Below the pieces are notes generated by a model. The model was given only the letters and a program-made list of their open reading frames with translations, made no database searches and was not told where the DNA came from. This document shows, one piece after another, positions 7,556 to 64,000 of a DNA stretch of 64,000 bases. Every line of letters starts with the position of its first letter. Position 1 is the stretch's first letter. A program made the translations under genes and the position numbers. The stretch lies in contig CAWGLY010000004.1 of NCBI GenBank assembly GCA_963823505.1, positions 68,807 through 132,806 of the forward strand, written 5' to 3'. The stretch is from an uncultured Acidimicrobiia bacterium (GTDB lineage Bacteria; Actinomycetota; Acidimicrobiia; Spongiisociales; UBA5794).

Positions 7556-7668
7556 GTGTGTCGTACCTATGTCAGCAGCGAGTGAGGATTCGGGCAGACG
7601 GCGGGACGAAGGTCTCAGTACCAACGGCGGATGAACGGGGCTCCTACGGGGCCCCCTCCGCATTTCTG
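7556..7668 (+). repeat. repeated structured element, copy B (short variant)
   Basis: Core gtgtcgtacctatgtcagcagcgagtgaggattcg, then the 3' hairpin ggggctcc-tac-ggggcccc (G-U wobble compatible), then ctccgcatttctgg. Confidence 0.6.
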
Positions 7669-27442: not shown

Positions 27443-27720
27443 CGTCTCGTGCGCATCGTTGTCGATGTCAGGTCTGGGGTTGGTCGAGCGTGGTCATGTT
27501 GGCTCCCTTCAGTGCTTGCCTGCAGCGTGCAACGTGGGGCTGACACCGCGCTGACCTCCCGCTGACAGCGGGCGAAGGGGCCGTCAGCGAGTCCTCAACC
27601 ATCGACCGCGGCCCTGGAGGACCGCGTTGAACGTGGCTCCTGGGCGAACGACCTCCCGGGCAGGCCTCGAGCTCTCGATCCGCGGCGACAGCGCCCGCGA
27701 CGGTGCCCTAGGTTGCGCCT

Positions 27721-44251: not shown

Positions 44252-44303
44252 AGCGTCATTCACGATACCCCTCGCCGTCATGTCCTCCTCTCGGTTTCCT
44301 GCC

Positions 44304-46325: not shown

Positions 46326-48701
46326 TCAGTTCACGCTGATGCAGGTGAACGATTCGGGTGCAGGCTCGTATGCGTCCAGCAGGGCTCCCGGTACGTTTTC
46401 CCGATACGAGTCGGCGTAGTAGTTAACTGCGCACCACTTGTCATCTGGCTCGACGTAAGTCCTTTCGTTGCCGGCGAGTAGCCACAGATTGCCGTTGATG
46501 TCTTCGGCCACTGTTCCTACCCCCGGTTCTGGGAGCAGGTACTCGCCCGTGGTGCATTCATCGATCGAGTCACCTTCCACCATGCCGAGGATGATTCCTA
46601 GCTCATCTACGGGGTACCGGTAGCTCAAGCATTCAAAGACCCCGGGTGCGAGCGGGTGGTACAGCCCGGTTAAGTAGTCGAAGAACCACTCGTCGCCATT
46701 CGCTTCTCGGACGAGTTCGCCCGGGCCGAGGTCAGTTGTTACACCGGAGCCGGGATCGCCTCCGGGGTTTGTGAGCTCCTCAACCCATTCGCTCTGACAC
46801 TGCAGGTCCAATCGCCACCCCGCGTCGTTGAAAATCGAGAGACAGTGCGACCCGACCGGAAAACCGCCATACGATGTCGGCTTTGCAGCGGCGTACTCCA
46901 TGAATACGAGGCCATTCGGCAGCTGGAGGGTCCCGATCAGATCCACGGCGACAGTTCCCGCCTTGAGTATGTCCTGTCCGGTGTTGACGGTGCTCGTGAT
47001 AGCTTCGATCGAGGCCTTCCAACGCTCCGTGGCGCGAAGCGCATAGGTCCTTGTGGCCTCACCACCGAATTGCCCGATCGCCTCGATGAGGTCGTCGTAG
47101 GAATCGGGAAGACAAGAGCCCAGTGCGGGGACCAGACCTGCAAGGTGCGAGTTCGATGCAGTCCAGGCGCACTCTGCGAGTTCGTACGTCTCATCGTCGA
47201 ATACGAATTCGATCGCACTGCCGTCGGGAAACAGATCACCCATCCAGTCGAAGATTTCGCCAACAGTCACGTCAAGTGCGATCGCGACCGAGGTGCGCAG
47301 CTGGCTGGCAGAGAAGTTGACGCTCGCCACGGTGGAGGGCCATGTCGCATGGTTCACGCTCACCACCGGGGATGCTGGGCTCAATCGAACGTGCAGTTCA
47401 CCCTCCGGCGCAACCGCCGGACCAAACGCGACGATCTCAGCAATGATGTCTGATCCTCCTACTTCGCTGAGATCGACTGCCGAGGCTGGATTGGCAAGCA
47501 CCAACGTTCGGTCGAAGATGACCGTCGACCGGTTCCGAAGCTTGACGACGGCATCGCTGGCAGAGAACAGCGAGCATGCTCCGAACAGCGGACCTCCGGC
47601 AATGCCGGGATCGACCATCCCTCCTTCGATCGACACCCGAGCGACGGCGGACGGTGAGCAATCTGGAGGCGAAATCGCTGTTCCTCCCGCCCAGTCGATC
47701 ACGTCGTAGAAGCGGTTGTACCAGGGCGTCTCAATCGTCTCTACGGTTGACAGCGATGTGAGCGGAGTCGACACCATATTGGCTGTGAATGTCAGTCCGT
47801 GGTCGGGTGTGATCAGTTCGGTGCCATCGACCGTCTCGTGATAGACGGCCGGAACTGTCGGTAGGCCGAGTCCGTCCCACTGGAAAGTATCCCTCGGTAG
47901 GCCGACCTCCACCTCGCCGATCCACGGACCCTCGATGTGGGCATCCATGCGCGGCCAATCTGCGGTCTCGCTGATATCCGGAAGGACCGTCACTGACGCC
48001 CAAGCGCCGACGGGGTCCGTGATCGCACCTGGCGGGACGGCAAGGGAGTAGTTTCCCCGGCTGCCCTCAATGTCGACCTCCGCCCCTATGGAGGCATAGA
48101 CCCACCGGTACGCCACAGAGTTCCCGTCGTCATCCACTGCTTCGAACGGCGCCGGGGTGATGCACAGGTCACCGGCGAGCTTCTTCAGGCGACCATCGCC
48201 CACCCCGGAGATGATCGTCGCATGCTCCAAGGTCGGGAACGGATGAAGCGCCCGCCACTCGACGAGGCTCTCGGCCACGGGCTCCGACGCAAAGACGTCG
48301 GCGATCTCATCGACGCTTGCCGTTTGGAGGTCGATCTGCTCATCCGACTCGCAGACGTCTGCTGGAATCGGGGGCGGCAGAGTGAGGGTGGCGCATGCAT
48401 CAACCGCTGCGATGAGCTGGCTCATCCGGCCTGGCCCAATCCCAGCGACGATCAGCGCATCCTCGAGCGAGTAGTGAGGCCGAGATTCCACGATCCGTTC
48501 TGCTATCGGCGTGGCGACATCGAGGGTTGTCTGCAGATCCTCCAGCGACGCCGTGTTCATGTCGAGTTGCCCCTCGGCGCAAACCAACTCCACGACCGGG
48601 ATTGCTGCGCCGGGATCCGTTGTAACACCACCTTGCGCCGACGCACGATCGGTTGATGCAACCAAGACTGATCCGACCAGCAAAGAAATGACCAACGGCA
48701 T
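46326..48701 (-). CDS. large secreted protein with two ComEA-like helix-hairpin-helix DNA-binding repeats and a long C-terminal domain
   Basis: Signal peptide MPLVISLLVGSVLVAS. Two HhH repeats of ComEA type (LDMNTASLEDLQTT...IVAGIGPGRMSQLI; IDLQTASVDEIADV...IISGVGDGRLKKL). Confidence 0.6.
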   Translation of the reverse strand: MPLVISLLVGSVLVASTDRASAQGGVTTDPGAAIPVVELVCAEGQLDMNTASLEDLQTTLDVATPIAERIVESRPHYSLEDALIVAGIGPGRMSQLIAAVDACATLTLPPPIPADVCESDEQIDLQTASVDEIADVFASEPVAESLVEWRALHPFPTLEHATIISGVGDGRLKKLAGDLCITPAPFEAVDDDGNSVAYRWVYASIGAEVDIEGSRGNYSLAVPPGAITDPVGAWASVTVLPDISETADWPRMDAHIEGPWIGEVEVGLPRDTFQWDGLGLPTVPAVYHETVDGTELITPDHGLTFTANMVSTPLTSLSTVETIETPWYNRFYDVIDWAGGTAISPPDCSPSAVARVSIEGGMVDPGIAGGPLFGACSLFSASDAVVKLRNRSTVIFDRTLVLANPASAVDLSEVGGSDIIAEIVAFGPAVAPEGELHVRLSPASPVVSVNHATWPSTVASVNFSASQLRTSVAIALDVTVGEIFDWMGDLFPDGSAIEFVFDDETYELAECAWTASNSHLAGLVPALGSCLPDSYDDLIEAIGQFGGEATRTYALRATERWKASIEAITSTVNTGQDILKAGTVAVDLIGTLQLPNGLVFMEYAAAKPTSYGGFPVGSHCLSIFNDAGWRLDLQCQSEWVEELTNPGGDPGSGVTTDLGPGELVREANGDEWFFDYLTGLYHPLAPGVFECLSYRYPVDELGIILGMVEGDSIDECTTGEYLLPEPGVGTVAEDINGNLWLLAGNERTYVEPDDKWCAVNYYADSYRENVPGALLDAYEPAPESFTCISVN

Positions 48702-48984
48702 GAGATGCCGGTGCAACGAAACAGACACTTTGAGCCCCCCTCTACGTGTCGAATTCTCTCCTTTCGCATCATCAGCCATATGCCCTAGCGCATCATCATC
48801 AAAATTGATGAAACTCCATCCGAATGAAATCAACCCGTGAGCTTCACGGCCCGCCCTTGATCTCGAACCACCAGTTGCTCGCTAGACGAAGCCACCGGAC
48901 CCTGACGCCCAGTGACCATTGCCCAGTGCCGCCCATCCATGCGCGCTGTAGGCTCGTGGTCGCCAGGACTCCCGAGGGGGGAGA

Positions 48985-50944
48985 GTGGAACATCACTCTG
49001 AGCTGACCAACTTCATCTGGACCGTCGCCGATCTGCTCCGCGGCGACTACAAGCAGTCCGAGTACGGGCGCGTCATCCTGCCGCTCACGGTGATCCGCCG
49101 CCTCGACTCGGTCCTCGCACCGACCAAGGCCAAGGTCCTCGCCGAGCACGACCGCTACCGGGACAAGCTCGGCGACGAGGCTCTCGCCGACCTCCTCAAC
49201 CGGGCCGCCGGGCACACCTTCCACAACACCTCGACGCCTCGACTTCGAGACCCTGGTCGCCGACGCCCCCAACATCGCCGCCAACCTGAAGTCCTACCTC
49301 GCCGGGTTCTCCGAGAACGCCCGGCGGATCCTCGACAACTTCCGGTTCAACGAGCACATCAACCGGCTCGACCGGGCCGGGATCCTCTACCTCATCATCC
49401 AGCGGTTCAACCAGGTCGACCTCCACCCCGACCGGGTCTCCAACGTCCAGATGGGCTACATCTACGAGGACCTCATCCGCCGCTTCTCGGAGCAGTCCAA
49501 CGAGACCGCCGGCGAGCACTTCACCCCCCGTGAGGTCATCAAGCTCATGGTCAACCTGCTCTTCGCCCCCGACCAGGACGTGCTCACCGACCGCCACATC
49601 GTCCGCACCATCTACGACCCCGCCTGCGGCACCGGCGGCATGCTGTCGGTCGCCGAGAACCACCTCCGCAACCTCAACCCCGACGCCACCCTCGAAGCCT
49701 TCGGCCAGGAGATCAACCCCGAGACCTACGCCACCTGCGTCTCCGACATGATGTTGAAGGGCCACGACACCGACAACATCGTCTTCGGCAACACCTTCAC
49801 CGAAGACGGCCTCCCCACCAAACGCTTCGACTACATGCTCACCAACCCGCCCTTCGGCGTCGACTGGAAGAAGTACCAGCAGCAGGTCAAGGACGAGCAC
49901 GAGCAACACGGCTGGCAGGGACGATTCGGCGCCGGCCTGCCCCGAGTCTCCGACGGATCGCTCCTCTTCCTCCAACACATGATGTCGAAGATGAAGGCGC
50001 CCCAGCACGGCGGCAGCCGCCTCGCCATCGTCTTCAACGCCTCGCCGCTGTTCACCGGCGCCGCCGGCTCCGGCGAGTCGGAGATCCGCCGCTGGATCAT
50101 CGAGAACGACTGGCTCGACGCCATCGTCGCCCTGCCCGACCAGCTCTTCTACAACACCGGCATCTCCACCTACGTCTGGGTGCTCACCAACCGCAAGACC
50201 GACGCCCGCAAAGGCAAGGTCCAGCTCATCGACGCCCGCGACCTGTTCCAGAAGATGCGCAAGAGCCTCGGCGACAAACGCAACGAGCTGTCCGACGACC
50301 ACATCGCCGAGATCACCCAGATCTACGCCGACTTCGCCGAGTCCGACCGCTCGAAGATCTTCCCCAACGAGCACTTCGGCTTCCGCCGCATCACCGTCGA
50401 GCGCCCGATGCGGGGCAGTTGGGTCATCGACGACGAGGCGATCGAGTCGATCCAGGCACACCGGTCGTTCGAGAAGATGAAGCCCGACCAGCAGGCGGCG
50501 CTGCTCGATGCGGTGACGGCGATCCGGGACGACTACGGCACCGACGAGGCGGCGCTGGTCGACAAGCTGAAGGCGGCCACCGCCGAGCGAGGGCTCAAGC
50601 TGACGGCGACGATCAAGAAGCTGGTGCTCGGCGCCGCCTACCGCTACGACCCCGACGGCGAGCTGCTCCTCGACAAGGACGGCAACCCGCAGCCCGACTC
50701 CGATCTGCGCGACTACGAGAACGTGCCGCTCGCCGAGACGATCGAGGAGTACATGCAGCGCGAGGTGCTGCCCCATGTCCCCGGCGCCTGGGTCGACGAG
50801 TCGAAGACCAAGATCGGCTACGAGATCCCCTTCACTCGGGAGTTCTACGTCTACGAGCCGCCCCGACCGCTGGCGGAGATCGACGCCGAGATTGAGGCGC
50901 TCGAGGGCGAGATCCTGGAGCTGCTCCGCGAGGTCGCGACTTGA
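48985..50944 (+). pseudogene. hsdM: type I restriction-modification DNA methyltransferase HsdM, single frameshift near 49235
   Basis: N-terminus FIWTVADLLRGDYKQSEYGRVILPLTV (frame 48985). The remainder, with NPPFG and DPACGTGG, is in frame 49451..50944. A 1-nt insertion falls after FHNTS. Confidence 0.8.
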
Positions 50945-51039
50945 CCGTTCAACTCGCGGCCGCCGTGTCCGTTGACAGCGCCGACGTACTCGCAGATCCG
51001 ATGGACGGCTCGACGCTCTCCGGTCGCTCCGTGACGGCA

Positions 51040-52230
51040 CGTTGAGTCGACGGCACCGGTCGCCTCGTCGACTGGACTGGCGATCGCCCGGAGCACACGA
51101 TCGAATCGGACGAGGCGGCCAGACGGCTTCGACGCATCGTGGCGGGCGACACGATCATGCTCGACGAAGTCGCGGACGTACCTGCACGAGGTCTGGCATG
51201 TCTGATCGGTCCGGACCACTGCTCGCTCACGAGCTAGTGGTCGTGCGTCCGAACCGCATGGATCTCGACAGCACGCTACCTCTACTACGTCGTTCTGTCG
51301 TCTACGTTCGTCGAAGTGGTCGGATGCGCTCGTCCTATGGCACGACGATGCCGCGCACCTCAGTCGGAAGCGCCGTGGCAAGCTCGAGAGTCGAGCTGCC
51401 GTCCCTGCCGGCAACTCAGCAGCACCATCGCCGACTTCCTTGATCGGGAGACGGGGCGGATTGATGCGTTGGTGGAGAAGAAGCGGCGGCTGATCGAGCT
51501 GCTCGAAGAGAAGCGGACGGCGCTGATCAGCCACGTCGTCACCAAGGGCCTCGACCCAACCGTCCCGATGAAGGACTCCGGCATCCCCTGGCTCGGCGAG
51601 ATCCCAGCGCATTGGGAGCGTTACCAAGCACGTGCTCGTCCACATTGCCGAAGGTCAGGTCGGAGCATCGACGTCTCGAGCCGTCGGACGCATCGATGCC
51701 GCTCGTAGCATCCGTAACTACATGCGTCCAGGCCGAGTCGACGAGTTGACCGACGTCGCATCATGCTCCAGGAGCAGGATGCCATCAGCGGTAAGTACCT
51801 GTGCGAAGCCGGGCGATCGTCGATCTATTCGAAGATCCGCACCCGGCCGACGAAGGTTGTGTTGGCTCCAGGCGAGTGCCTCTGTAGCGCCGACATCGTA
51901 CCCAATGCGTGTCGCCATGGGCTTCGCCCCGGGTTCTTGCGTTGGTGCTTGCTAGGCGATCGCTTCTCGACGCAGGCCGCAGCTTGGGTCTCTGAACGGT
52001 GCGGCTATGCCGAAGGTCAACCGGGGACGCTCGTCGACGTGACGATTCCCGAGCCGCCCGGCGACGAGCAGGCCAGCGATGTCTGGGACTTGCAGGAGCG
52101 CTGGAGCAGACTGGACGAGTGATGCGGCTTGATCGAGCAGCAGCTCGACCTGCTCGCCGAGTACCGCCAAGCCCTCATCACCGCCGCCGTGACCGGCCAG
52201 ATCGACGTCGAGCGCCGAGACGCCCGAGCC
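51040..52230 (+). pseudogene. hsdS: type I R-M specificity subunit HsdS, fragmented by multiple frameshifts
   Basis: Conserved HsdS pieces lie in different frames: GTTMP...[70 protein letters not shown]. Confidence 0.65.
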
Positions 52231-52245
52231 CGAGGAGGCACTGGC

Positions 52246-55200
52246 ATGAGCGTCCACAAGGAGGGCACCTTCGAGGCGGCGATCGAGTCGCACCTCCTCG
52301 CCAACGGCTACTTGTCTCGCCGACTCCGTACGACGCCGACCTCGCCCTCGACACCGGCCACCTGTTCGCCTTCATCGAGGCGACCCAGCCCGAAGCCTGG
52401 GCCGAATACGTCAGCCTCCACGGCGACCAGGCACGCTCCACCCTCCTCAAGCGCATCGTCTCCGAGCTGGACCGCCAAGGCTCGCTCGGAGTACTGCGCA
52501 ACGGCGTCGTCGACTACGGACAGACGTTCAAGCTCGCCTTCTACCGGCCCGCCACCACGCTGGCTCCCGACGTGCAGCAGCTGTACGACGCCAACCGGCT
52601 TGTCGGTGATGCGGCAGGTGCCGCTGTCGGGCACGCAACGAGACCGTCGACATGGTGCTGTTCGTCAACGGCATACCTGTCGTCACCATCGAGTTGAAGA
52701 CGCCGACCACCAACCAGACCGTCGAGGACGCCGTCAAGCAGTACAAGGCACGAGACCATCGCCAGCAGCTGTTCCGCTACGCCGAGCGGGCGCTCGTCCA
52801 CTTCGCCGTCGATCCCGAGTCTGCCTACATGGCGACCAGGCTCAGCGGCAAGCAGACCCGGTTCCTGCCGTTCAACATCGGCCGGGACGGCGGCGCCGGC
52901 AACCCCGACAACCCCGCCGGCTACAAGACCGCCTACCTGTGGGAAGACGTCTGGCAACGCGACTCGCTGCTCGACCTGGTGCAGCGCTTCATCAACATCG
53001 AGTACCCGCCCGGCACCAAGAAGAAGGACCCGAAGAAGGGCGTCCACATCTTCCCTCGCTATCACCAGCGGGACGTCGTGAGGCAACTCGAAGCCCACGC
53101 CCGCCAGACCGGACCCGGCCACAACTACCTGGTGCAGCACTCGGCCGGGTCGGGCAAGTCGAACTCGATCGCCTGGACCGCCCACCGGCTCTACTCGCTG
53201 CACAACGAGGCCAACGAGCGGGTGTTCCACTCGGTGGTGGTGATCACCGACCGGCGGGTGCTCGACCAGCAGCTCCAGGACACGATCTACGGCATCGAGC
53301 ACCAGTTCGGTGTGGTGCACCGCATCGACGAGAACTCGCAGCAGCTCGCCGATGCGCTGGCGACCGGGGCGCCGATCATCATCTCGACGCTGCAGAAGTT
53401 CCCGGTGGTGATCGAGAAGATCGGCGGCCTGCCCGACCGCAACTACGCCGTGATCGTCGACGAGGCCCATTCCAGCCAGACCGGCGAGGCGGCCCGCAAG
53501 CTGCGCCAGGTGCTCACCACCGGCGGCATCGCCAACCTGCGCCGACGACGACGAGGAAGGCATCGACACCGAAGAGGCGGTGCTGCGGGTCATCGAAGCG
53601 TCGGGCCGCCAGCCCAACCTGAGCTTCTTCGCCTTCACCGCCACCCCGAAGCCGAAGACGCTGGAGATGTTCGGCACGGTCGGCGACGACGGCAAGCCCC
53701 GCCCGTTCCACGTGTACTCGATGCGCCAGGCCATCGAGGAGGGCTTCATCCTGGATGTGCTCGCCAACTACACGACGTACGACCGGTTCTTCAAGCTCAC
53801 CAAGGCCATCGAGGACGACCCGGAGTTCGAGTCACGCAAGGCGCAGCGGGCGATCGCCCGGTTCGTGCGACTTCCACCCCACCAACCTGGCGCAGAAGGC
53901 CGAGGTGATCGTCGAGCACTTCCGCCAGCACGTCCGGCACCGGATCGACGGGCGGGCCAAGGCGATGGTGGTGACGAAGCTCGCGGCTGCAGGCGGTGCG
54001 CTTCTAGCAGGCGATCAACGAGTACTGCGACGCCAACGAGTACCACGACATCGGGACGCTGGTGGCGTTCTCCGGGTCGCTGGACGACGTGACGGCGGTC
54101 GCGTACACCGAGACGTCGCTGAACGGGTTCTCCGAGCGGGAGCTGCCCGGCCAAGTTCGACACCGACGAGTACCAGGTGCTGGTGGTGGCCGAGAAGTAC
54201 CAGACCGGGTTCGACCAGCCGCTGCTGCACACGATGTACGTGGACAAGAAGCTCGACGGGGTGCAGGCCGTGCAGACGCTGTCCCGGCTGAACCGCACCA
54301 TGCCCGGGCAAGGACGGACACGTTCGTCCTCGACTTCGTCAACGACGCCGAGGACATCCAGGGCGGCCTTCGAGCCGTACTACGAGGCAGACGGTGCTGG
54401 AGTCGCGGACGGATCCCAGCAATGCTGTACGACTTGAAGCACACGCTGGATGAGTGGGGGATCTACTGGCCACAGGAGGTGGAGGACTTCGCGGCGATCT
54501 TCTTCAAGCGGACGATGGACGCAAGCGACCAGGGACTCCTGTACGCCATCGTCGACAAGGCGGTGAGCCGTTTCGCAACGAGCTGCAGCATGACGAAGAA
54601 CGAGAGGACTTCAAGAGCCTGCTCGACTCGTACTTGCGGATGTATGGGTTCCTCACCCACGTTGTCAGCTTCAAGGACACGAGCCTGGAGAAGCTCTACG
54701 CCTATGGCAAGTGGCTGCGCCGGCTGCTGCCCAGTAGCCGGGAAGTCTCGATCGTCGACCTCGGTGAGGACATCGATCTGGCTGCGATCCGCATCCAGTT
54801 TGCCGGTTCCGGCGCCATCGAGCTTGGCGAAGGACGGGAGCTGACGCCGCCCCGGCCGGGTGGCCGGAAGGCGGAGGAGCTGTATGTCTCACTTAGCGAG
54901 CTGATCAAGGAGTTCAACCAGCGGTTTGGCACCGATTTCACCGAGGCCGACATGTTGCTGCCAGAGGCGGTCCACTTGGACATGCTGGCAGACGACAGAC
55001 TGGCCGAGCAGGCCAGGGCCAACACGCCGGCGAACTTCCGCATCGTGTACGAGGATGCCTACCGGGATGCGCTGTTCGACCGTAAGGACCGCAATGAGGA
55101 GGTGTTCCTCAAGCTGGTCGACAACAACAAGCTGCTGCAGGCGATGATGGATGCGTACTTCCAGGCGACGTACAAGAAGCTGCAGGACCAGAAGACCGCG

Positions 55201-55692
55201 CCGGAGCTGATCGAGGCAGGCGAGTCCGACAGGGTCGAGTTCAAAGCGTCGGCGCGGTGGGGCTACAAGGCAGGCAAGCTGCTGCCGGAGGTCGAAGATG
55301 CCTTCGTGAAGACGGTCGCAGGCTTCCTGAATGCCGATGGCGGCACGCTGCTGATTGGTGTCGAGGACCGCACGGGCGGGGTGGTCGGCTTGGACCGGGA
55401 CGTGGCATCGGTGAAGGGCAAGGACCTCGACGGCTACGAGAACTGGATGACCGACAAGCTGGTGGCTGCGCTCGACCCGGGTGCGACGTCGGTGGCTCGA
55501 GTTGCAGTGTCGTTCGCTTCGGTCGACGGGGTTGAGGTGGCTCGCCTCGAGGTGGCGCCGAGCCCCGAGCCTGTCTACGCCAAGACATCGAAGAGCAGCG
55601 AAGCCTTCTACGCCCGTATCAACAACTCAACGAGGGAGCTATCGCCAAGCGAGACGGTCAAGTACGTAGGCGAAAGGTGGGGTACGGGATGA
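52246..55692 (+). pseudogene. hsdR: type I R-M restriction subunit HsdR with C-terminal Schlafen/AlbA_2-like domain, at least 6 frameshifts
   Basis: Start MSVHKEGTFEAAIESHLLANGY. Helicase motifs (SAGSGKSNSIAWTA, DEAH as VIVDEAHSSQ, TATPKPKT) and HsdR C-terminal pieces are spread over four or more frames. The tail ESDRVEFK...FLNADGGTLLIGVED is AlbA_2/Schlafen-like. Confidence 0.7.
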
Positions 55693-55735
55693 GTGGAGCA
55701 CCTTTGATTTCGAAGACCGTTCGAAGGAGGATGCA

Positions 55736-56629
55736 ATGCCGCTCTACGAGGTGAAAGAAAGCGAACTGGTTGGTTTTCGGAAGCTCCACGGAGGCGCCGA
55801 CCTCTATGAGCAAGAGATCGAAGACCTGCTTTGGTCCAACCTCGATGACTTCACAGGAGAGTCCTTCTTCCGTATTCAGCGCCAAGCCCTAATCAAGGGT
55901 GGGGGCCGTCCAGACATCGTTGCGCTCGATGACACGGCGCGTGTGGTCGTTATCGAGGTGAAGCGCGATGTAGACCGGGGGCAGCTCGCACAATGCCTCG
56001 AATACGCCGGATGGGCCAAGACCACATCGCTCGACGAGCTGGCCGGGTTGTACTTCCGGGGACCGGACAAGTTCTTTAGCGATTGGCAGGAGTTCACGGA
56101 GTCAGACGCCCCGGTCGTCATCAATTCCAATCCGCGCCTAATCCTCGTGGCTCGCGACTTCCACGATCGTACGTTCTCTGCGTTTGAGTTCCTTACCCAG
56201 GGTCAGCTGCCTATCGGCCTCATCCGGGTCGCCGTCTACGAGGATGCGAGCGGCCGTAGGTTCGTCGACGTCGAGGGCGACCACGAGCCCGAGTTCGCCG
56301 CAAGCCAAGAGGCTGCTGGCATCGACCACACCAAGATTGTCGGGCGGAGGATCAGGCTTGCAGACCTGTTGGATGCCGGACTTCTTGAGGTCGGCGACGC
56401 GTTGACCTGGAAGCGGCCGAAGCTCGGGGACTCCTACACGGCCCACGTGAATGCGCAGGGAGCGATTCAGCTCCCTGATGGACGATCGTTCACGTCGCCG
56501 TCCCGGGCAGCAATGGAGGCGGCCGACATCGTGTCGTACGACGGTTGGTACGCGTGGCGGCTCGATCGGAATGGCAAGCTGGTGAACGATCTCCGCAAGG
56601 AGCTCGTCGACGAACGCAATTCAAACTGA
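55736..56629 (+). CDS. NucS/DUF91-like PD-(D/E)xK nuclease with C-terminal RAMA-like (putative modified-DNA reader) domain
   Basis: DIVALDD...VVIEVKR...QCLEY gives the D-EVK and QxxxY motifs of NucS-type nucleases. The C-terminus has SPSRAA and DGWYAWR motifs reminiscent of RAMA domains. Intact frame; lower GC than the flanks. Confidence 0.55.
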   Translation: MPLYEVKESELVGFRKLHGGADLYEQEIEDLLWSNLDDFTGESFFRIQRQALIKGGGRPDIVALDDTARVVVIEVKRDVDRGQLAQCLEYAGWAKTTSLDELAGLYFRGPDKFFSDWQEFTESDAPVVINSNPRLILVARDFHDRTFSAFEFLTQGQLPIGLIRVAVYEDASGRRFVDVEGDHEPEFAASQEAAGIDHTKIVGRRIRLADLLDAGLLEVGDALTWKRPKLGDSYTAHVNAQGAIQLPDGRSFTSPSRAAMEAADIVSYDGWYAWRLDRNGKLVNDLRKELVDERNSN

Positions 56630-56644
56630 TTGGTAGGAGTTCAA

Positions 56645-57316
56645 ATGGCGCTTGCGAACGGAGTGTCGGAATTCGTTGAGAGACAACGCTCGCTGTACGG
56701 CAAAGACCTGGTCCCGTCTCGACGGGATGCCGAACAGCAAGCCAGAGAACTGCTGGACGATCGCGCTGGCACGATGACCGAGGACGACGCTCTCGAGCTT
56801 GGGCGACTCCTTAACTCTGGGTCGTGGGACGGCCGCCCGATGCGCAATCGCTTCGCACCCATGTTCCAGGGCGGCGCCATTGCGAAACTGACGGCGGACC
56901 TCGACCGCTTCAATGCAGTGACTGCTGGATTGTGGCGGGGCTCAGACGAGGAGGCGCTCAGCGCCCTTGACCGCATCTACAAGGACCACTCCACCCTGCC
57001 GAGCGCAGGAAGGTCCTATCCCTCGATCCTGATGTACCTTCGAGACCCGGAGCGGTTCGCAGTGCACTACAGCTCCACTGACGAGGGCCTGACGGCACTC
57101 GTCGGTGTGGAATTGCCGGACCGGCAGATTGGCAAGGACGGATTTCTCGCCTTCTGTGCACAAGTGCGGAAACTCCGAGTCGAGTACGACCTCGCCCCGC
57201 AAGAGGTCGATGCCGTCCTAGCGTCGGCCCAGAGAGAGCTGTGCACTTCGACGAGCGTCGACACTGATGAAGTGCCAGTCGTGGGCGCAGGCGCTGTCCG
57301 GGGAGGAGACGCATGA
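56645..57316 (+). CDS. hypothetical protein (defence-island resident)
   Basis: An intact 224-aa frame immediately downstream of the NucS-like gene. No recognised motif. Confidence 0.4.
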   Translation: MALANGVSEFVERQRSLYGKDLVPSRRDAEQQARELLDDRAGTMTEDDALELGRLLNSGSWDGRPMRNRFAPMFQGGAIAKLTADLDRFNAVTAGLWRGSDEEALSALDRIYKDHSTLPSAGRSYPSILMYLRDPERFAVHYSSTDEGLTALVGVELPDRQIGKDGFLAFCAQVRKLRVEYDLAPQEVDAVLASAQRELCTSTSVDTDEVPVVGAGAVRGGDA

Positions 57317-58560
57317 CCCCGGAGGAGTTCAGTCGGAGCTGGGGGGCCTCACCGAAGAGGCTGAAGCGATGGCTGCGGGACACCTTCCCGCGACCTCCGG
57401 GAGAGGAGAACCAACCGTGGATCATGTCCGAAGATCAGATCGCTCAGGCACGGCGGCCTTCACGTCCAGTGAGACAACGCCGTGGGACGAGTTCATCCAC
57501 TGGGCTGCGCGGTTCTTCCAGCGGCCCGACTACGACAGCATCGAACGCAACTACAAGCTCGAGATCGCAGACCACCTCCGCTCCGTCAGGGAGGCTGTGC
57601 GCCGAGCGGACGAGGACTGGCCGGTGAAGCTGAAGCGTGCGTTTGGGTCGCCCAACAACCTCACGTACTTCATTACCCACACGACATACCTTGACTGGGT
57701 CAACTCCAATCCTGACGAGGCGCGGGCAGGGCTGCTCGCGATCTGGGACGAAGACGCCGGAATCCAGGAGCGGCTCCTCGGGTTCCTTGATTCACTTCCG
57801 CACGAGGCGCTTGCAGGCGGGGCATCGGCAATCGTCTGCAGATTGCCTCGTTCCTCCTGCTCGCTGATCCGACCGAGTTCGTGATCTTCCGCCCTTCGCC
57901 GATTCAACGAAGGGTGTCGCCGTCGGGAGTTCCCGGTTGGCACCGAGGTTGACGAGTATCTGAGGGCGCTCTGCCTTCGTCGATAAGGTGGTCGAGGAGT
58001 GCGCCCGGGGATTGGAGCTCAGGGACCAATTCGACGCGCAAGGTCTCGTGTGGTCGGTAGTCACGCAGAGGAGGCCTGATCCATCGACAGAGGAGCACGG
58101 AAGCCCTGCACCGCTTCCGTGGCGAACCTACCACGGTCTGGTGGGTGAATCAGGGGATCAACGAAGAGTGGGAAGCCGGCGTAGTGACGCTCCGTTGCGG
58201 AACAAATCAGGACGACCTCCAGCACTGGACGAACCTGTACGCGCCCCGTCGATGTGATCGTGCTCACTACGTTGCAGGCGAGGTCCGGGCAATCAGCAAG
58301 TGCCCAAAGTGCACGGCAGCCAACCGTCGGAAAGAGTGAGGGTCGATTGGAGCTCGTCCGACTCCGCTACCACGACCTCGAGGTTCCGATCGGCAAAGAC
58401 GAGATTCCTCGGAGTGGAGCTCGAGGATCGGGCCCATTCAATCGGAAGGGCGAGGTCAAACAGGGCTACGTCTACCTGGAGCCGGAACGTGCCGCGATCT
58501 CGGATTCGCTGCGCCGACGCGGGCCCGGTTCGCCGACCGGTGGCCCGACGGGTCGCCTTG
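57313..58560 (+). pseudogene. degraded gene, possibly an N-terminal sensor (DUF3578/MrcB_N-like) region of a McrB-type protein; multiple frameshifts
   Basis: Fragments PWDEFIHWAARFFQRPDYDSIERNYKLEIADHLRSVREAV and IASFLLLADPTEFVIFRP lie in different frames. There is no long intact ORF. Confidence 0.3.
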
Positions 58561-58567
58561 GGCGCCC

Positions 58568-59950
58568 GTGCAGAGGACGACGTGGCTGTTCCAGGCCAAT
58601 CCACAAGTCTGGAATCTCGAAGAGAAGCTCGAACCGATGCAGATCGGCGACGAAGACACGTGGACGGTCTCTCGGTACAAAGCAGAGATTGCGGAAGGCG
58701 ACCGCGTGCTGCTCTGGCAATCTGGACCGCACGCAGGGTTGTATGCCGTCGGTCAGGTTGTCGGGGAGCTGTTCGAGCGCGACATCGAAGAGTCCCAAGC
58801 CAGCGGAGACAGCACCACCGCCATCGCCTATCGCCTGACCCGCAAGGTCGATCCACCGATTCTCCGGTCCGACGTCGTCAACCATCCGGTGCTCAAGGGC
58901 CTCCAGATCATCACGGCACCGCAGGGCTCGAACTTCAGAGTCACCGACGAGCAATGGGTGGAGCTGAAGAGGCTCATCGACGGCGGTCAGCGAATCGAGA
59001 AGGGTGTCGAAGAGCTCCCGGCGCGGACCTTCGACGAGATCTCGCTGTACATCGCCAATCAGGGACTCATCCTGACGGAACGCACGCTCCGGCGGTTCCA
59101 CGTTTCGCTCGCGACCCGTGGCTTCGTGGTGCTCAGCGGCGTCAGCGGTACGGGGAAGACGTGGCTCACCGAGGTGTACGCCGACGCCATCGGGGCGCGC
59201 TACCTGCTGGTTCCGGTCGCTCCCAACTGGACGACCAATGAAGATCTGCTGGGCTACCTCAACCCGCTGGACTCGGTTTACCACGACACAGTCTTCGGTC
59301 AGTTCCTGCGGGAGGCTGCCGAGGAGTGGGCCGCCGCAACCTCGGCCCAGCGAGAACCTCGCAAGTTCATCCTGACGCTGGACGAGATGAACCTGGCACG
59401 CGTGGAGTACTACTTCGCCAAGTTCCTCTCCGCAATGGAAGTGCGCTCACGCCGGGGGACCGCCGGCATCGAGCTTGCCCCCGACAAAACCGTAGAACTC
59501 ACCCCCAATCTGCTCTTCATCGGCACTGTCAACATCGACGAGACCACGCACGGTTTTGCGGACAAGGTGTTCGACAGGGCACAGCTGATCGAGCTCGAGG
59601 CGCCTCGCGAGGCGATCGCAGACCACATTGGCCAAGCGGCGTTTCGGGACACGCTGCTCGATGTCTACGACGCCGTGGCGACAGCCAAGCCTTTTGCGTT
59701 CCGGGTCGTCGACGAGATCAAGAGCTACGTTGGCGAGTCCGAGGGCCTCGACGTCGACTGGCCGGAATCTGTCGATGAGCAGATTCTCCAGAAGGTCCTC
59801 CCCAAGCTCACAGGAGCCGACCCGGCAGTGCGGTTTGCCCTGGAACAGCTCGTCAACATGGCCGAAGAGAATGGCTTGGGTTTGACCCTGGCCAAAGGGA
59901 AGCGGATGCTCGATGACTACGACCGAGACGGTTTCACCTCCTACTTCTGA
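58568..59950 (+). CDS. mcrB: McrB-family GTPase (AAA+) with N-terminal EVE/PUA-like modified-base-binding domain
   Basis: N-terminal EVE-like domain: WLFQANPQVWNLEE...RVLLWQSGPHAGLYAVGQV. AAA+ Walker A GVSGTGKT. McrB-specific motifs: NWTTNEDLLGY, TVNIDET. Confidence 0.8.
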   Translation: MQRTTWLFQANPQVWNLEEKLEPMQIGDEDTWTVSRYKAEIAEGDRVLLWQSGPHAGLYAVGQVVGELFERDIEESQASGDSTTAIAYRLTRKVDPPILRSDVVNHPVLKGLQIITAPQGSNFRVTDEQWVELKRLIDGGQRIEKGVEELPARTFDEISLYIANQGLILTERTLRRFHVSLATRGFVVLSGVSGTGKTWLTEVYADAIGARYLLVPVAPNWTTNEDLLGYLNPLDSVYHDTVFGQFLREAAEEWAAATSAQREPRKFILTLDEMNLARVEYYFAKFLSAMEVRSRRGTAGIELAPDKTVELTPNLLFIGTVNIDETTHGFADKVFDRAQLIELEAPREAIADHIGQAAFRDTLLDVYDAVATAKPFAFRVVDEIKSYVGESEGLDVDWPESVDEQILQKVLPKLTGADPAVRFALEQLVNMAEENGLGLTLAKGKRMLDDYDRDGFTSYF

Positions 59951-61505
59951 CCTCGCGTTCCTCGATCGGACCGGGGTCGTCGTCGACGTCCCCGCCGAGT
60001 GGGAGCCCGCGCACGTGGTGCTTCCCGTTGAGGCGCAGGATGTGTCCGGCGTCGCCGTGATGGTGAACGGCCGGCCAGTCGAGGTGATCGTCAAATCGGT
60101 GGCAGGGTCGCTGCGCGTTGTGGCGCTCTGGCAACGCGCCGGGCCCGGATGGTTCGACATCGAGGTCACGCTCCCCAGTCACAATCTGCGGCGCCGGATC
60201 CGGGTGGAGCCAGGCAAGATCGACCATGCGGCGTTCGCACACCTCCTCCAGGATCTGGAGATCCGCCTTCCCGTCGCACTGGCCATCGCGCTGCGGGACG
60301 GTGGAGCCCGATTGGGTGTCCACCTCACTGATCCGGCCGAGCAAACGCTGGCCACGGAGGTCGCTCGCCTGCGGCGGGCTGTCGAAGGCGGAGGGAGGCC
60401 GGGGCTGGTCTCTGTGCTCGAAGAACTCGCCGAAGACCCTCATCGGATGCTCGTCAATGTGGGCCAGTGGGTGCGACGGGAGAGGGCCAGGCGACCGCAC
60501 GGTGCAGATCTGGCGCGATCGTTGTGGCGGGCCGGAAATGTCGAAGACGGGAAGATCCAGCAGGTTCTGGATCGGCGGGTAGAGCACACGGTCGATCTGT
60601 ACGAAAACCGATTGGTCAAGGCGTTCACGACCGAGGTCGACCGGCGGCTGCGGCGGCTCGGCGGTGTCCTCTCGGAGAGCGGGAACACGGATCTCCACGA
60701 CGAGATCTCCGGCTTGCTCGTCAAACTGACGAGGGCACAGCGGGCAGCCTTCTTCCTCAGTGAGGTTGGCCAGCTCCGCAGCGCGCCTGATCGAGTGACG
60801 ATGGTGCTCCTCAAACGCAGGGAGTATCGGGCGGCGTACGAGGGCTTCCTCGAGTTCCGCCGGCGGATGAGCGTGCACCTCGACGAGCCTGCGCTGGCCG
60901 AGCCATTGCGAAACCTGCCCTACCTGTATCAAGTGTGGGGTGCGTTGTTGGTGGTCGAGGCGGTCCTGGCGGCCGGCGTCGCCTCCGGTTTCCGTGTGGT
61001 GAGCCAGCGGATCGTCTGGCCCAATCGTGGCGGGATGTACCTCAAGGTTCTGAAAGACAACCAACCGGCAGTGGAGCTTCGCAATTCTGTGGGGGATCGG
61101 CTGCGACTGTACTCAGAGCGGCAGTACGGCGGACAGACAAGTCCCTTCCGCTCGATCAGCTTTGCGCAACGTCCCGACGTTGCCTTGGAACTCCAGCGAT
61201 TCGACGGGACACATGAGGTGTATCTGTTCGACCCGAAGTACAAGCTCGACAGCGAGTTCGGCGCCGACGCAGCGGATGGCAAGCCGAAGAAGGTCGACAT
61301 CGACAAGATGCATGCATACCGGGACGCCATCCGAGACACCGAGGGCCTGCACTTGGTCCGACACGCCGCGACGCTGTATCCGGGAACCTCTGTGACCTAC
61401 GGCTCAGATGTCGCTGCGCTGCGGATGTATCCGGGGGAGGAAAGCGAGTTGCACCGATGGTTGGTGCGGGACCTGTCGGACTGGATCATGGGAGGCGGAC
61501 TATGA
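59913..61505 (+). CDS. mcrC: McrC-like nuclease (DUF2357 plus PD-(D/E)xK)
   Basis: Overlaps the mcrB stop. The C-terminal PD-(D/E)xK motif is DVALEL...VYLFDPKYK. The upstream region is DUF2357-like. Confidence 0.7.
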   Translation: MTTTETVSPPTSDLAFLDRTGVVVDVPAEWEPAHVVLPVEAQDVSGVAVMVNGRPVEVIVKSVAGSLRVVALWQRAGPGWFDIEVTLPSHNLRRRIRVEPGKIDHAAFAHLLQDLEIRLPVALAIALRDGGARLGVHLTDPAEQTLATEVARLRRAVEGGGRPGLVSVLEELAEDPHRMLVNVGQWVRRERARRPHGADLARSLWRAGNVEDGKIQQVLDRRVEHTVDLYENRLVKAFTTEVDRRLRRLGGVLSESGNTDLHDEISGLLVKLTRAQRAAFFLSEVGQLRSAPDRVTMVLLKRREYRAAYEGFLEFRRRMSVHLDEPALAEPLRNLPYLYQVWGALLVVEAVLAAGVASGFRVVSQRIVWPNRGGMYLKVLKDNQPAVELRNSVGDRLRLYSERQYGGQTSPFRSISFAQRPDVALELQRFDGTHEVYLFDPKYKLDSEFGADAADGKPKKVDIDKMHAYRDAIRDTEGLHLVRHAATLYPGTSVTYGSDVAALRMYPGEESELHRWLVRDLSDWIMGGGL

Positions 61506-61828
61506 GGCAAGTGATTGCGTCGGCCTGGCACGGTGGCTACTCATCGACCAGCGACGGTACATACGGTGTTCGGTTTCGCGGAGATGATCGATACGCGATG
61601 GTCGACGGCGACCGGGCCACGGTCATACTGCGGTTGTCGGGCAGAGCGTCAGCAGTAACGGTCGACGTGACCCCGGGCTTCTGGCGGAAGTGCCCGGAAC
61701 TCCGCCATCGTGAGATCGGACGATGGCTTCGCGAGCTCGGCCTGGTGCCATGGCCGAAGGGTCGGCCCCCGAAGCTTCGTGTGTCTCGCACGGAAGGCAA
61801 GGCTGAGCTGTACGTCGAACCGGCGTAG
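61502..61828 (+). CDS. small hypothetical protein translationally coupled to mcrC
   Basis: The ATGA overlap puts its start on the mcrC stop. A 108-aa intact frame (MRQVIASAWHGGYSS...). Confidence 0.45.
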   Translation: MRQVIASAWHGGYSSTSDGTYGVRFRGDDRYAMVDGDRATVILRLSGRASAVTVDVTPGFWRKCPELRHREIGRWLRELGLVPWPKGRPPKLRVSRTEGKAELYVEPA

Positions 61829-61949
61829 GAGCGATGGCCGGCGGATCGACCGTCCTACAGCGGCGGGTCGTCCAGACTCTCGACGGCCACGCGAGACGGT
61901 CGATTCATTGTCGGTGACGATTCTGAGGTTCCGTTCGTCCACGTGCCGA

Positions 61950-62324
61950 TCACAGAACGATTGCCTCGCTGAGGGGTTTGTCGAGGTATGCAAACCATCC
62001 GGCGAGTGGGGCGCAAAGCGGGCCGACGACGACCTTGTTGATGCGCCCCCGACGGTTCTCGATGACGCACCAACGAACAAGAGGGTCCTGGTCGTGCATG
62101 GCGATGACCTGCTCGACGGCTTGCCTCGTTGTATCAGCATTGAGGTGGATGCGGTGATCGCCGACGGTCGAGTAGACCCAAGGTTGGCCGCCGAAGGAGG
62201 CGGTGCTTCCGATCGTGTTTGCCTTCGATTCGCTGAGCCACCAACCCAGAGCGTCGAGCAGTTCCGTCTTGCTCGTCAACTGCAGCCGCCGAGGGAGATG
62301 TCCCTGTGCGTCCAGTTCGTACAT
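61950..62324 (-). CDS. hypothetical protein
   Basis: An intact frame starting at MYELDAQGHLPRR. The upstream part of the 188-aa ORF is low-complexity. Confidence 0.35.
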   Translation of the reverse strand: MYELDAQGHLPRRLQLTSKTELLDALGWWLSESKANTIGSTASFGGQPWVYSTVGDHRIHLNADTTRQAVEQVIAMHDQDPLVRWCVIENRRGRINKVVVGPLCAPLAGWFAYLDKPLSEAIVL

Positions 62325-62576
62325 GGAATGCGTCCTTTCGCGAGGTCGGTTGCCCCATGCTCTACGTTCGCCTCGACTTCTCCCAAATGATCGTCGGCTG
62401 CGCACAAGGGACAGAAAGCAGGCATGGTTCGATCCTTCCTGGTCTTCACGAACTCTCGCAGCCGATGCCGTCGTTGTCGCCATCGAGGCCGTATTCGTCC
62501 CAGCCCACCACCGCACCGTCGTGGTTGTGGTCCACGTGCATTTGGCGAGGGAAAACGTCGTCGTGGTCCGCCCCCC

Positions 62577-62753
62577 TCATCGCCTCCGGTCGTGGACGGA
62601 TATCGAGACGATCGGGGAATCGGCGGCTCCCACCCGCAGCGCCTCCTTCAGGAGGGCCTCGACTTCCGCCTTCGACAGCACCGGTGTCGGCAGGAACTCG
62701 TCGGTGAGCTTGACCCTGATGGATGCGCCGTATTCCTTCGTCGGTTCGGCCAT
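62577..62753 (-). CDS. small hypothetical protein (DUF3107-like?)
   Basis: A 58-aa frame, MAEPTKEYGASIRVKLTDEFLPTPVLSKAEVEALLKEALRV. The upstream ORF portion is low-complexity. Confidence 0.3.
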   Translation of the reverse strand: MAEPTKEYGASIRVKLTDEFLPTPVLSKAEVEALLKEALRVGAADSPIVSISVHDRRR

Positions 62754-62860
62754 GCGAATCTCCTCGTGCGACCGGCCCAAGCTACCGCGCTGACGGAGAA
62801 TCCACCCCTCGCGCGCACTCCTAACCTCCGCGTGGTAGCGCGCCGAGCCAGGGAGCATCG

Positions 62861-64000
62861 ATGACCCTTCTCCATCCCCGTCACCTCGATCGGTCTTACC
62901 CCGACGAGCGGTCCGCCGAGGTGATGGCCAAACTCGTCGAGTTCTTCGAGGCGAAGGGCAAAGCCGCGCCTCAAGGACGACGACCACGATGCCGTCTGGT
63001 ACCAGGACTTCCTCGACTTCGTCGCCGCCGAGGGCATCTTCGCCACCATGTGCACGCCCGCCGGCTACGGCGCCGCCGACGCCCGCTGGGACACCTGGCG
63101 CATCTGCGAGTTCGCCGAGATCCTCGGCTTCTACGGCCTGCCCTACTGGTACACCTGGCAGGTCACCGTGCTCGGCCTCGGGCCCATCTGGATGTCCGAC
63201 AACGAGGCCGTCAAGCAGCGGACGGCGCAGCTCGCTGCAGGACGGCGCCATCTTCGCCTTCGGGCTGTCGGAGAAGGCGCACGGCGCCGACCTCTACTCC
63301 TCGGAGATGACGCTCACCCCCACCGGCGACGGCACCTACGTGGCCAACGGCTCCAAGTACTACATCGGCAACGGCAACCAGGCCGCCCTCGTCTCCACCT
63401 TCGGCAAGATGGCCGACACCGGCGAGTACGTGTTCTTCGCCGCCGAATCCGAGCCACCCCAACTACCGGCTGGTCAAGAACGTCGTCCACTCCCAGAACT
63501 ACGTGTCCGAGTTCGAGCTGGACGACTACCCGGTCACCGACGCCGACATCCTCCACGGCGGCGACGACGCCTGGGACGCCGCCCTCAACACCGTCAACAT
63601 CGGCAAGTACAACCTGGGCTGGGCGTCGATCGGCATCTGCACCCACGCCTTCTACGAGGCGATCCACCACGCCGCCCACCGCCACCTCTACGGCATGGCC
63701 GTCACCGACTTCCCCCACGTCAAGCGGCTCTTCACCGACGCCTACGCCCGCCTCGTCGCCATGAAGCTGTTCGCGCTGCGGGCCGCCGACTACATGCGGT
63801 CCGCCGCCGCCGACGACCGCCGCTACCTGCTGTACAACCCGGTGGTGAAGATGAAGGTCACCACCCAGGGCGAGGACGTCATCAACCACCTGTGGGACGT
63901 CATCGCCGCCAAGGGCTTCGAGAAGGACATGTACTTCGAGATGGCGGCCCGCGACATCCGGGCGCTGCCCAAGCTCGAGGGCACGGTGCACGTCAACATC
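62861..64000 (+). pseudogene. acyl-CoA dehydrogenase-family gene, at least 3 frameshifts, continues beyond window
   Basis: ACAD-like segments lie in three frames: ERSAEVMAKLVEFFEAKGKA; MCTPAGYGAADARWDTWRICEFAE...LGPIWMSDNEAVKQRTAQL; GAIFAFGLSEKAHGADLYSSEMTLTP...YYIGNGN; then NLGWASIGICTHAFYEAIHHA. Confidence 0.6.

Follow-up and report, generated by a model that had tools for sequence, protein, structure and literature searches.

What does an anti-phage island consist of when some of its genes look broken and their neighbours look whole? We address this question for a run of restriction genes in the uncultured Acidimicrobiia bacterium assembly GCA_963823505.1, contig CAWGLY010000004.1, of which a stretch of 64,000 nt (hereafter the window) was analysed; between positions 48985 and 61828 of the window all genes lie on the plus strand. 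A preliminary description, made from the sequence alone, had seen here a decayed type I restriction-modification (R-M) system displaced by an intact McrBC enzyme, possibly with a small accessory subunit, and beside these a nuclease that might have a partner of its own. Using Pfam, NCBIfam and PADLOC profiles for the domain calls, we recover the defence island as such: a co-oriented type I R-M system, a NucS-like/RAMA nuclease and an EVE-McrB/McrC pair, with the EVE, McrB and McrC profile matches that had been named as tests all present. The island is thus a fairly ordinary anti-phage array, comprising a type I R-M system, a single-gene nuclease and a McrBC-type enzyme for modified DNA. The combination of these three is known; what goes beyond routine is a B3-like protein family and a multi-reader McrB of putative NxD type. 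As a whole, the locus is probably best explained as a co-oriented restriction array with a long multi-reader McrB, a B3-like accessory and frameshifts specific to this record, for which consensus error is the likelier source.

A long McrB with several predicted reader domains

One question is which reading frames between the R-M genes and the end of the island belong together. The features concerned are the following:

55736 to 56629, plus strand: single-gene candidate nuclease, intact, with a NucS-like PD-(D/E)xK N-terminal half (RPDIVAL...VIEVKR) and a C-terminal RAMA domain
56645 to 57316, plus strand: McrB N-terminal module as a separate 223-aa open reading frame (ORF), predicted all-helical, its stop overlapping the ATG at 57313
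57313 to 58567, plus strand: N-terminal part of the McrB body, with a linker, a helical domain (about 57471-58060) and a VcaM4I-type EVE domain (about 58120-58510), in at least six frame pieces
58568 to 59950, plus strand: C-terminal part of McrB, an open 460-aa ORF with an EVE domain (PF01878) and an AAA+ GTPase
59913 to 61505, plus strand: McrC (DUF2357 plus PD-(D/E)xK), intact (PDDEXK_7 1.7e-21; DUF2357 9.1e-17)
61502 to 61828, plus strand: 108-aa stand-alone B3-like (DNA-binding pseudobarrel) protein, translationally coupled to mcrC through a 4-nt ATGA overlap with its stop, and GGGAGG upstream

Judged from sequence comparison, three items that the preliminary description had kept apart, a "224-aa unknown", a "degraded gene" and an "EVE-McrB", are one McrB unit. 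The open 460-aa ORF matches EVE (3.5e-11), AAA_5 (6.5e-10) and PADLOC PDC-M26A (3.8e-50), and Walker A (GVSGTGKT), Walker B (LTLDEMN) and the signature VNIDE (GTVNIDETTH) can be read in its sequence. PDC-M26A aligns with it from profile position 306 onward, so N-terminal sequence seemed to be missing; the GTG at 58568 is preceded by no Shine-Dalgarno sequence and is the first possible start in 76 codons. This part is about 85% identical to the relative P0002. When the coding-looking pieces of 57471-58567 were joined across frames and to the 460-aa ORF, the resulting 782-aa query aligned over 100% of its length to EVE plus AAA_5 proteins of 843-1091 aa, with 67% identity to P0002 and 60% to P0004. 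Laid onto the window by tblastn, P0002 follows the frame order 1/3/2/1/2/3/2 between 57313 and 58567, and the ATG at 57313 matches its start (MTPE...), while residues 1-196 of P0004 map by the same means onto 56651-57235, that is, onto the 224-aa ORF. In L092, an 8.7-kb ENA contig with the same order of hsdR-SLFN, NucS-RAMA and McrB, one ORF of at least 571 aa spans both the N-module and the McrB body. The N-module accordingly occurs in three states: fused (P0004, P0005, P0006 and L092), absent (P0007 and P0012) and, in the window, as a separate, coupled ORF. At its position 7590/7591, L092 is without 187 nt that are present in the window at 57282-57468 and hold the N-module stop together with an 'MTPEEF...' segment; the deletion puts the N-module in exact register with the downstream McrB frame, so that a single segment sets the fused form apart from the split one. 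The EVE-McrB that had been taken as intact is therefore only the C-terminal 460 aa (58568-59950) of a longer protein whose remainder is broken in the upstream 1.25 kb, even though the underlying domain calls (EVE and AAA_5 in McrB, DUF2357 and PDDEXK_7 in McrC) hold.

Reconstructed across these frames, full-length McrB would run from an HhH-glycosylase-like N-module through a helical domain, a VcaM4I-type EVE domain and the Pfam EVE domain to the AAA+ GTPase, HhH standing for helix-hairpin-helix. None of Pfam, NCBIfam and PADLOC matched the 224-aa ORF or the frame-joined McrB N-terminal pieces. We hold with moderate confidence that the modelled N-module resembles the HhH-GPD DNA-glycosylase fold (Tm1821/AGOG, MutY, EndoIII, AlkA), a likeness at the level of predicted fold and with no sequence match. 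Two points count against this assignment: the model, built from a 4-sequence alignment, has a pLDDT of 75.6, a weak point, and no sequence-level link to glycosylases was found. The helical mid-domain, of about 200 aa, gave no detectable relatives in profile searches. We considered whether it repeats the N-module and rejected this, as hhalign returned only E=0.023 and a probability of 2%, at a shared '...L(R/A)DP..F.V' motif.

The third domain is of VcaM4I type. A profile of the 'VWWVNQG...VKQVYL' domain, made from the relatives, hits residues 3-139 of VcaM4I (6YEX) with E=4.7e-11; a duplicate of the Pfam EVE domain was considered and discarded, since hhalign found no similarity between the two. 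VcaM4I is an EVE-HNH modification-dependent endonuclease that flips 5-methylcytosine or 5-hydroxymethylcytosine (5mC/5hmC) into a pocket (PMC7897488). Across the long McrB family the NQ, E, AP and KQxY residues are conserved, and their correspondence to the pocket was judged by eye, without a formal alignment. Unlike VcaM4I, the McrB domain is fused to a second EVE domain and a GTPase and not to HNH, it is scrambled by indels in the window, and a 5mC/5hmC specificity would be ascribed to it by analogy. The GTPase signature VNIDE appears by eye, without formal alignment or tree, to fit the NxD(E/D) variant (PMC11090510); NxD-type McrB proteins form a major branch of which no member has been characterised (Bell et al. 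2024, PMC11090510).

Downstream, mcrC overlaps mcrB by 38 nt, and residues D422, D440, K442 and K444 of McrC are invariant among four relatives. Its best identity among GTDB species representatives is 55%, and a Logan contig encodes an identical McrC. The pair has what identifies a McrBC system, namely an AAA_5 domain with Walker A and B motifs, an EVE reader on McrB and a downstream McrC; it lacks an uninterrupted full-length mcrB frame, only the last 460 codons being open. In comparison with EVE-McrBC systems of the NxD branch (PMC11090510; EVE survey PMC7641849), it shares the AAA_5 GTPase with an N-terminal EVE domain, the DUF2357 plus PD-(D/E)xK McrC encoded by an overlapping downstream gene and a type I R-M system alongside on the same strand, and its N-I-D-E signature appears by eye to match that of the branch. 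It differs in the far greater length of McrB (843-1091 aa in relatives), in the predicted HhH-glycosylase-like module, the extra helical domain and the two distinct tandem EVE-type domains, in the small B3-like gene that follows mcrC (a DUF7662 gene in some relatives), and in the frameshifted N-terminal half found here. By analogy with characterised McrBC and VcaM4I, the EVE modules would flip and recognise modified cytosines of the 5mC/5hmC kind, McrB hexamers would translocate DNA with GTP, and McrC would stimulate the GTPase and cut.

Assigning the 224-aa ORF to McrB also bears on the gene before it. The NucS-type nuclease with a RAMA-like C-terminus had been called correctly: RAMA (PF18755) matches at 3.1e-21 (75.8 bits against a gathering cut-off of 35.2), and the N-terminal half is NucS-like. 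Among the PADLOC families, PDC-S11 (7e-20, residues 25-179) and PDC-S18 match the N-terminal half and PDC-S14 (7e-15, residues 202-294) the C-terminal half, the PDC families being unvalidated predictions. The ATG is preceded by a ribosome-binding site (GAAGGAGG), and L092 carries the same gene in the same position. With NucS/EndoMS the protein shares the NucS-type PD-(D/E)xK motif (RPD...EVK); it lacks the NucS N-terminal DNA-binding domain and has a C-terminal RAMA domain instead. An orthologue of NucS was considered and rejected, the NCBIfam NucS model reaching only E=0.021 and 13.9 bits, against a cut-off of 216, over residues 25-78 alone. The proposed two-gene module of this nuclease and an unknown partner falls away, since the supposed partner is the McrB N-terminal module, fused to McrB in P0004, P0005, P0006 and L092; no full-length relatives were seen in which the homologue of the 224-aa ORF regularly goes with NucS-RAMA in place of McrB. 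Because it has no independent partner and matches PADLOC single-gene candidates, NucS-RAMA is best read as a single-gene unit. We found no paper on NucS-RAMA fusions in a literature search of incomplete coverage.

The free-standing B3-like protein

What, then, is the small ORF at the end of mcrC? It is a real, conserved gene, with a homologue in L001 and a large family of relatives. A word-indexed homology search returned only the ORF itself; the family emerged with exhaustive HMMER searches, which gave 510 cluster representatives (clusters at 50% identity) at E<=1e-3 and, under the stricter limit of E<=1e-10, 83. Most are proteins of about 105 aa, and the family has the common motif AW.NG..YG.R..DRD..F...V.L.L....V.I.PSFWR.CPELR..EIG.WL...GL.PWPKG.PP. 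Pfam matched neither the 108-aa ORF nor 22 of its relatives, even at E<=1, so the B3, EcoRII-N and BfiI-C models are unmatched; there was likewise no NCBIfam or PADLOC match for the ORF and no sequence relative in the PDB. An AlphaFold model from a 103-sequence alignment (pLDDT 92.5, pTM 0.85) has the seven-stranded open pseudobarrel expected of the fold, and Foldseek placed the N-terminal domain of LlaJI.R1 at the top (probability 0.89), with further matches to NgoAVII, BfiI and EcoRII. On the strength of this model, the protein has a predicted B3-like DNA-binding fold, the binding itself being likewise predicted. Sequence identity to B3-like domains (LlaJI.R1 6C5D, R.NgoAVII 4RD5, BfiI-C 3ZI5, EcoRII-N 3HQF/1NA6, UbaLAI 5O63 and the plant B3 factors) is 6-14%. 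In restriction enzymes these domains are fusions, whereas the 108-aa protein is free-standing and occurs with defence operons of many kinds. As a fusion, a partnership of B3 with McrBC has a precedent in LlaJI.R1, which is itself a McrB-like GTPase.

The neighbourhoods of the family do not tie it to McrBC. Conservation beside mcrC holds for the closest full-length relative locus, L001, where an uncalled homologue with 38% identity overlaps the mcrC end, and it fails beyond that, with none of 80 genomic McrC loci carrying the gene. A role as an accessory small subunit of McrBC, as had been proposed, is not borne out: the gene follows this mcrC only in the window and in L001, and it occurs with unrelated systems too. 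At or near the end of operons, family members accompany an HmaA-like SNF2/NOV_C helicase-nuclease, HsdR with a PD-T4-6-type kinase, HerA with HNH, HsdR with an unknown protein and then AbiEi, a different McrBC (AAA_5 McrB with PF10117 McrC), Mrr-nSTAND3 (PDC-S73), a MmeI-type enzyme with an FGE-sulfatase, and a GmrSD island. Loci in which the B3-like gene comes last or near-last after such diverse defence proteins are L096, L116/L133, L126, L135, L095, L094, L086 and L085. A few members are fused to larger proteins (P0090, P0124 and L134, the last of 462 aa), and in L088-L090 the gene sits among apparently non-defence genes. A degenerate DNA pattern, used to find further loci of the family, matched nothing in viral contigs; the pattern is narrow and the negative a weak one. 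Our literature search, again of incomplete coverage, found no description of free-standing B3-like proteins of defence islands.

In three other close McrBC relatives (L002/L003, L004 and L005), an unrelated DUF7662 gene holds the slot of the small ORF. These genes (PF24698, 60-80 aa) lie after mcrC at 12026-12268 in L002, 14131-14313 in L004 and 3800-4099 in L005; this McrBC clade thus seems to have a 3'-terminal slot in which the small gene varies.

How the protein might act can be weighed from these contexts. Going by the predicted fold, it is most likely a portable, sequence-specific DNA-binding accessory, and a role as autoregulator of the operon seems somewhat more probable than one as a targeting subunit acting in trans. 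It speaks against the former that regulator genes more often open an operon than close it. The rival explanation is that the protein is a trans-acting specificity subunit, not a transcriptional regulator, which would recognise a particular DNA sequence and recruit or license the adjacent motor-nuclease, doing as a separate polypeptide what B3 domains do as fused parts of LlaJI.R1, R.NgoAVII, BfiI and EcoRII. We regard this as rather unlikely, although several observations favour it: the closest structural matches include those very recognition domains, the gene lies downstream of a nuclease, helicase or NTPase gene in 8 of 11 annotated contexts, and it shares 4 nt with the upstream gene in the window and 14-31 nt in L001 and L096, an arrangement that speaks for stoichiometric co-expression. 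In the remaining contexts it follows a gap of 100-500 nt or small unannotated ORFs. Other defence systems use B3-like domains as sensor modules (Menshen NsnA; PMC12065111). Set against a specificity subunit is the great diversity of the partners (kinase, HerA/HNH, SNF2-NOV_C, McrC, FGE-sulfatase, Mrr-nSTAND), which makes a conserved protein-protein interface unlikely, as well as the placement among non-defence genes in L088-L090 and the reader domains that McrB here already has.

The two parts of the locus that go beyond routine can be put into one proposal, which we advance tentatively and with less than even confidence: the McrB would represent an uncharacterised architecture in which a glycosylase-like base-flipping module and two EVE readers are mounted on an NxD GTPase, and the undescribed, widespread B3-like family would be a portable module of defence operons that supplies either sequence specificity in trans, to nucleases and motors with no other kinship (McrBC, HmaA-like, HerA/HNH and kinase-linked type I systems), or a shared regulator of the islands.

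Frameshifts in the R-M genes and in McrB

Are the broken genes of this island decayed, or is the record at fault? Besides the N-terminal 1.25 kb of the McrB body, the breaks fall in the type I R-M genes:

48985 to 50944, plus strand: hsdM (type I methyltransferase), in two frames with a switch near 49200-49275
50950 to 52215, plus strand: hsdS (specificity subunit), in fragments split by stops and frame changes
52245 to 55692, plus strand: hsdR with a C-terminal Schlafen/AlbA_2 domain, with about eight frame switches in this record

The breaks agree with those described before. In hsdM, which starts at a GTG at 48985 with a ribosome-binding site (GAGGGGGGA) upstream, HsdM_N matches at 48985-49275 (3.1e-16) and N6_Mtase (7.8e-65) and PADLOC MTase_I (5.7e-225) at 49451-50944, and the two-frame reading in the frame track fits the single frameshift that had been noted. 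The several breaks reported in hsdS correspond to three Specificity_I matches with stops between them, at 51316-51705 (6e-41, the central conserved region), 51763-52119 (1e-9) and 52129-52330 (3e-11, the C-terminal conserved region), hence to at least two interruptions; the first ~350 nt have no match to PADLOC Specificity_I. Successive-frame pieces of hsdR match HSDR_N, SWI2_SNF2, ResIII, DEAD and T1R_D3-like models, and the heavy frameshifting and Schlafen/AlbA_2-like tail described earlier are seen in the frame track and in an SLFN_AlbA_2 match (8.3e-17). HsdM, HsdS and HsdR thus stand together in one cluster, as a type I R-M system does, and their reading frames are not intact.

Near-identical relatives give a different picture of the same genes. 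Identity between L092 and the window is 97.3% over 52243-57281 and rises to about 99.7% for 54750-57281; across the stretch in which 14 single-base insertions fall in the window, the HsdR frame of L092 stays open for 685 aa. Against L092, hsdR in the window has 21 indels, comprising 16 insertions (15 of a single base and one of 3 nt) as opposed to 5 deletions. In the McrB body there are 33 indels of 1-7 nt relative to L092, whose frame is open for at least 571 aa, and in the Logan contig with the identical McrC the upstream McrB frame is open for at least 640 aa. The indels sit in patches that hold nearly all of the mismatches; 60% of the hsdR mismatches fall at third codon positions, and we therefore read them as allelic divergence of functional genes with indels superimposed. 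Elsewhere in the window long ORFs, up to 1056 aa, are intact. An origin in homopolymer errors was considered and rejected, as the indel junctions lie mostly outside runs of at least four identical bases. In this comparison of sequences, the evidence points to frameshifts specific to the record, arising either from consensus problems at a strain-variable locus or from very recent strain-specific decay.

Between these two, we favour the former: the frameshifts in hsdM, hsdS, hsdR and the N-terminal 1.25 kb of McrB are probably consensus errors of a long-read or strain-mixed assembly. Genuine pseudogenisation, which would then be very recent, is a serious prospect that we rate below an even chance. 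Several observations weigh against consensus error. Such errors must have left 58.57-62.3 kb, NucS-RAMA and the N-module wholly untouched and yet struck the neighbouring kilobases about once per 100-250 nt; the patch at 57750-58516 diverges by about 15-18%, above the usual consensus error; hsdR in L092 is itself broken (ORFs of 685 and 267 aa, with the N-terminal part of hsdR uncalled); and L091, an independent Illumina megahit contig, has a disrupted McrB N-terminus and an open 435-aa EVE-AAA ORF. Because L091 is independently disrupted, real loss of the McrB N-terminus does occur in the family. In L091 (117-4179) the N-terminal half of McrB is interrupted by an ISL3 transposase, by a frameshift and by an in-frame stop, and McrC is open; another ORF, at least 145 aa long, overlaps the end of mcrC there.

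A more specific form of the decay argument holds that the type I R-M system and the N-terminal readers of McrB have been lost recently in this strain and that selection keeps the remaining genes, namely NucS-RAMA, the N-module ORF, the 460-aa EVE-GTPase McrB (from GTG 58568), McrC and the B3-like gene; such a shortened system would still restrict modified DNA through its remaining EVE domain. The open frames of 0.9, 0.67 and 3.3 kb between heavily frameshifted stretches are what selection on some genes gives, L091 retains its EVE-AAA ORF and McrC despite an insertion sequence, a frameshift and a stop, the indels are not linked to homopolymers and so are not typical nanopore or 454 errors, and L092 also has a few hsdR breaks. 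We nevertheless find this selective retention doubtful. The flanks are about 99.7% identical to L092 as against dozens of indels within the patches, and neutral decay is not so patchy so fast; a sample with a 100% identical McrC has a McrB frame that runs open over at least 640 aa; GTG 58568 is without a ribosome-binding site and is the first possible start in 76 codons; and GC content at third codon positions (GC3) in hsdM and the hsdR core is still 0.95. Bacterial pseudogenes have a deletion bias, and the excess of 1-nt insertions in hsdR (16 insertions to 5 deletions) is the opposite of it.

The frameshifts also speak against the history first proposed for the island, in which an intact McrBC with its dedicated small subunit had displaced the R-M system and NucS-RAMA with the 224-aa protein formed a separate module. 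The McrB N-terminal 1.25 kb is as frameshift-dense as hsdR, McrB is not intact in this record, and the frames in L092 and the Logan contig are open. It remains true that the predicted domain matches are present, that the small ORF overlaps the mcrC stop and is kept after mcrC in L001, and that only 15 nt separate the NucS-RAMA stop from the start of the 224-aa ORF. That ORF is, however, the McrB N-terminal module, and the small ORF is found at none of the 80 genomic McrC loci, gives way to DUF7662 in L002, L004 and L005, and occurs with unrelated systems. A type I R-M system and McrBC form a standard pairing, McrBC beside type I R-M on one strand being a known and common arrangement (PMC11090510), so their adjacency needs no displacement story, and nothing in the data speaks for one. 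Two parts of the earlier model, its intact McrB and its two-gene NucS-RAMA module, are refuted, and taken as a whole it is highly improbable.

Composition, edges and wider meaning of the island

Does base composition mark the island as one acquisition? Two further features delimit it:

48803 to 48984, no strand: AT-richer divergent intergenic region, found by direct reading (GC 0.58 in 48500-48999)
61950 to 62324, minus strand: convergent 124-aa ORF, with the same call on the Logan contig (GC3 0.736)

The AT-rich stretch that had been reported is there: its string lies, by direct reading, at 48803-48836, between the 835-aa minus-strand ORF (46326-48833) and hsdM. The lower GC claimed for the genes from NucS-RAMA onward also stands (0.628 in 55736-61828); the 70% background it was set against does not, as GC is 0.665 in 1-46000. 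These differences are real yet modest. GC3, with a background of 0.816 +/- 0.037 over 28 background ORFs, is not uniform across the island, as had been expected, and it deviates both ways: hsdM and the hsdR core lie above background (0.95, z about +3.7; hsdM 0.954), the SLFN tail, the C-terminal part of McrB (0.80) and McrC (0.77) lie near it (range 0.77-0.80, within about one standard deviation), and NucS-RAMA (0.74), the McrB N-module ORF (0.71), the 108-aa ORF (0.71), the 124-aa ORF and the 835-aa ORF lie below it (0.69-0.74, z -2 to -3.3). What these values show is a mosaic: the modules of the island have differing histories and do not form one uniform low-GC block. Its boundaries are drawn from composition only, integrase and flanking repeats not having been looked for; no tRNA lies within the window.

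On the left, the 835-aa ORF (46326-48833, minus strand) has an N-terminal signal- or transmembrane-like segment and two HHH_3 (ComEA-like helix-hairpin-helix) repeats. Because its GC3 is only 0.69 (z -3.3), the compositionally foreign stretch starts about 2.5 kb to the left of the finding. Further left lie a Uma2-family putative endonuclease ORF (43709-44464, minus strand) and an ion-transport-channel ORF (44004-45230, plus strand), stop-to-stop ORFs that overlap on opposite strands. At 27712-30879 (plus strand) the window encodes a 1056-aa regulator with BTAD/Trans_reg_C, nSTAND/NB-ARC and TPR domains; a similar nSTAND regulator adjoins the B3-like gene in L088-L090, probably by coincidence.

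On the right, the 124-aa ORF, which has no Pfam, NCBIfam or PADLOC match, is probably the edge of the island. It opens a convergent run of small minus-strand ORFs without family match at 61950-62753, with a possible 58-aa ORF (62577-62753) after it, and the Logan contig has three more small minus-strand ORFs (49, 44 and 69 aa) downstream of the 124-aa ORF. An acyl-CoA dehydrogenase-like gene follows at 62861-64000 (plus strand; Acyl-CoA_dh_1 C-terminal domain at 63311-63997; GC3 0.90-1.0), and its frames run 2, 0 and 2, a sequence that requires two frameshifts about 260 nt apart, the second compensating the first. The lesion is of the same kind as those in hsdR and mcrB and lies just past the end of the Logan contig, which spans about 58026-62786.

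For the reading of such islands, the locus carries a caution: calls of decayed or intact genes from the frameshifts of one record can err both ways, an "intact" gene turning out to be a fragment and a "decay" being absent in near-identical relatives. The multi-reader McrB could offer a route to asking how one motor integrates several base readers. The B3-like family, with at least 510 clusters, no Pfam or NCBIfam model and members that gene callers often miss (as in L001), is a candidate for a regulator or specificity factor that different defence islands have in common.

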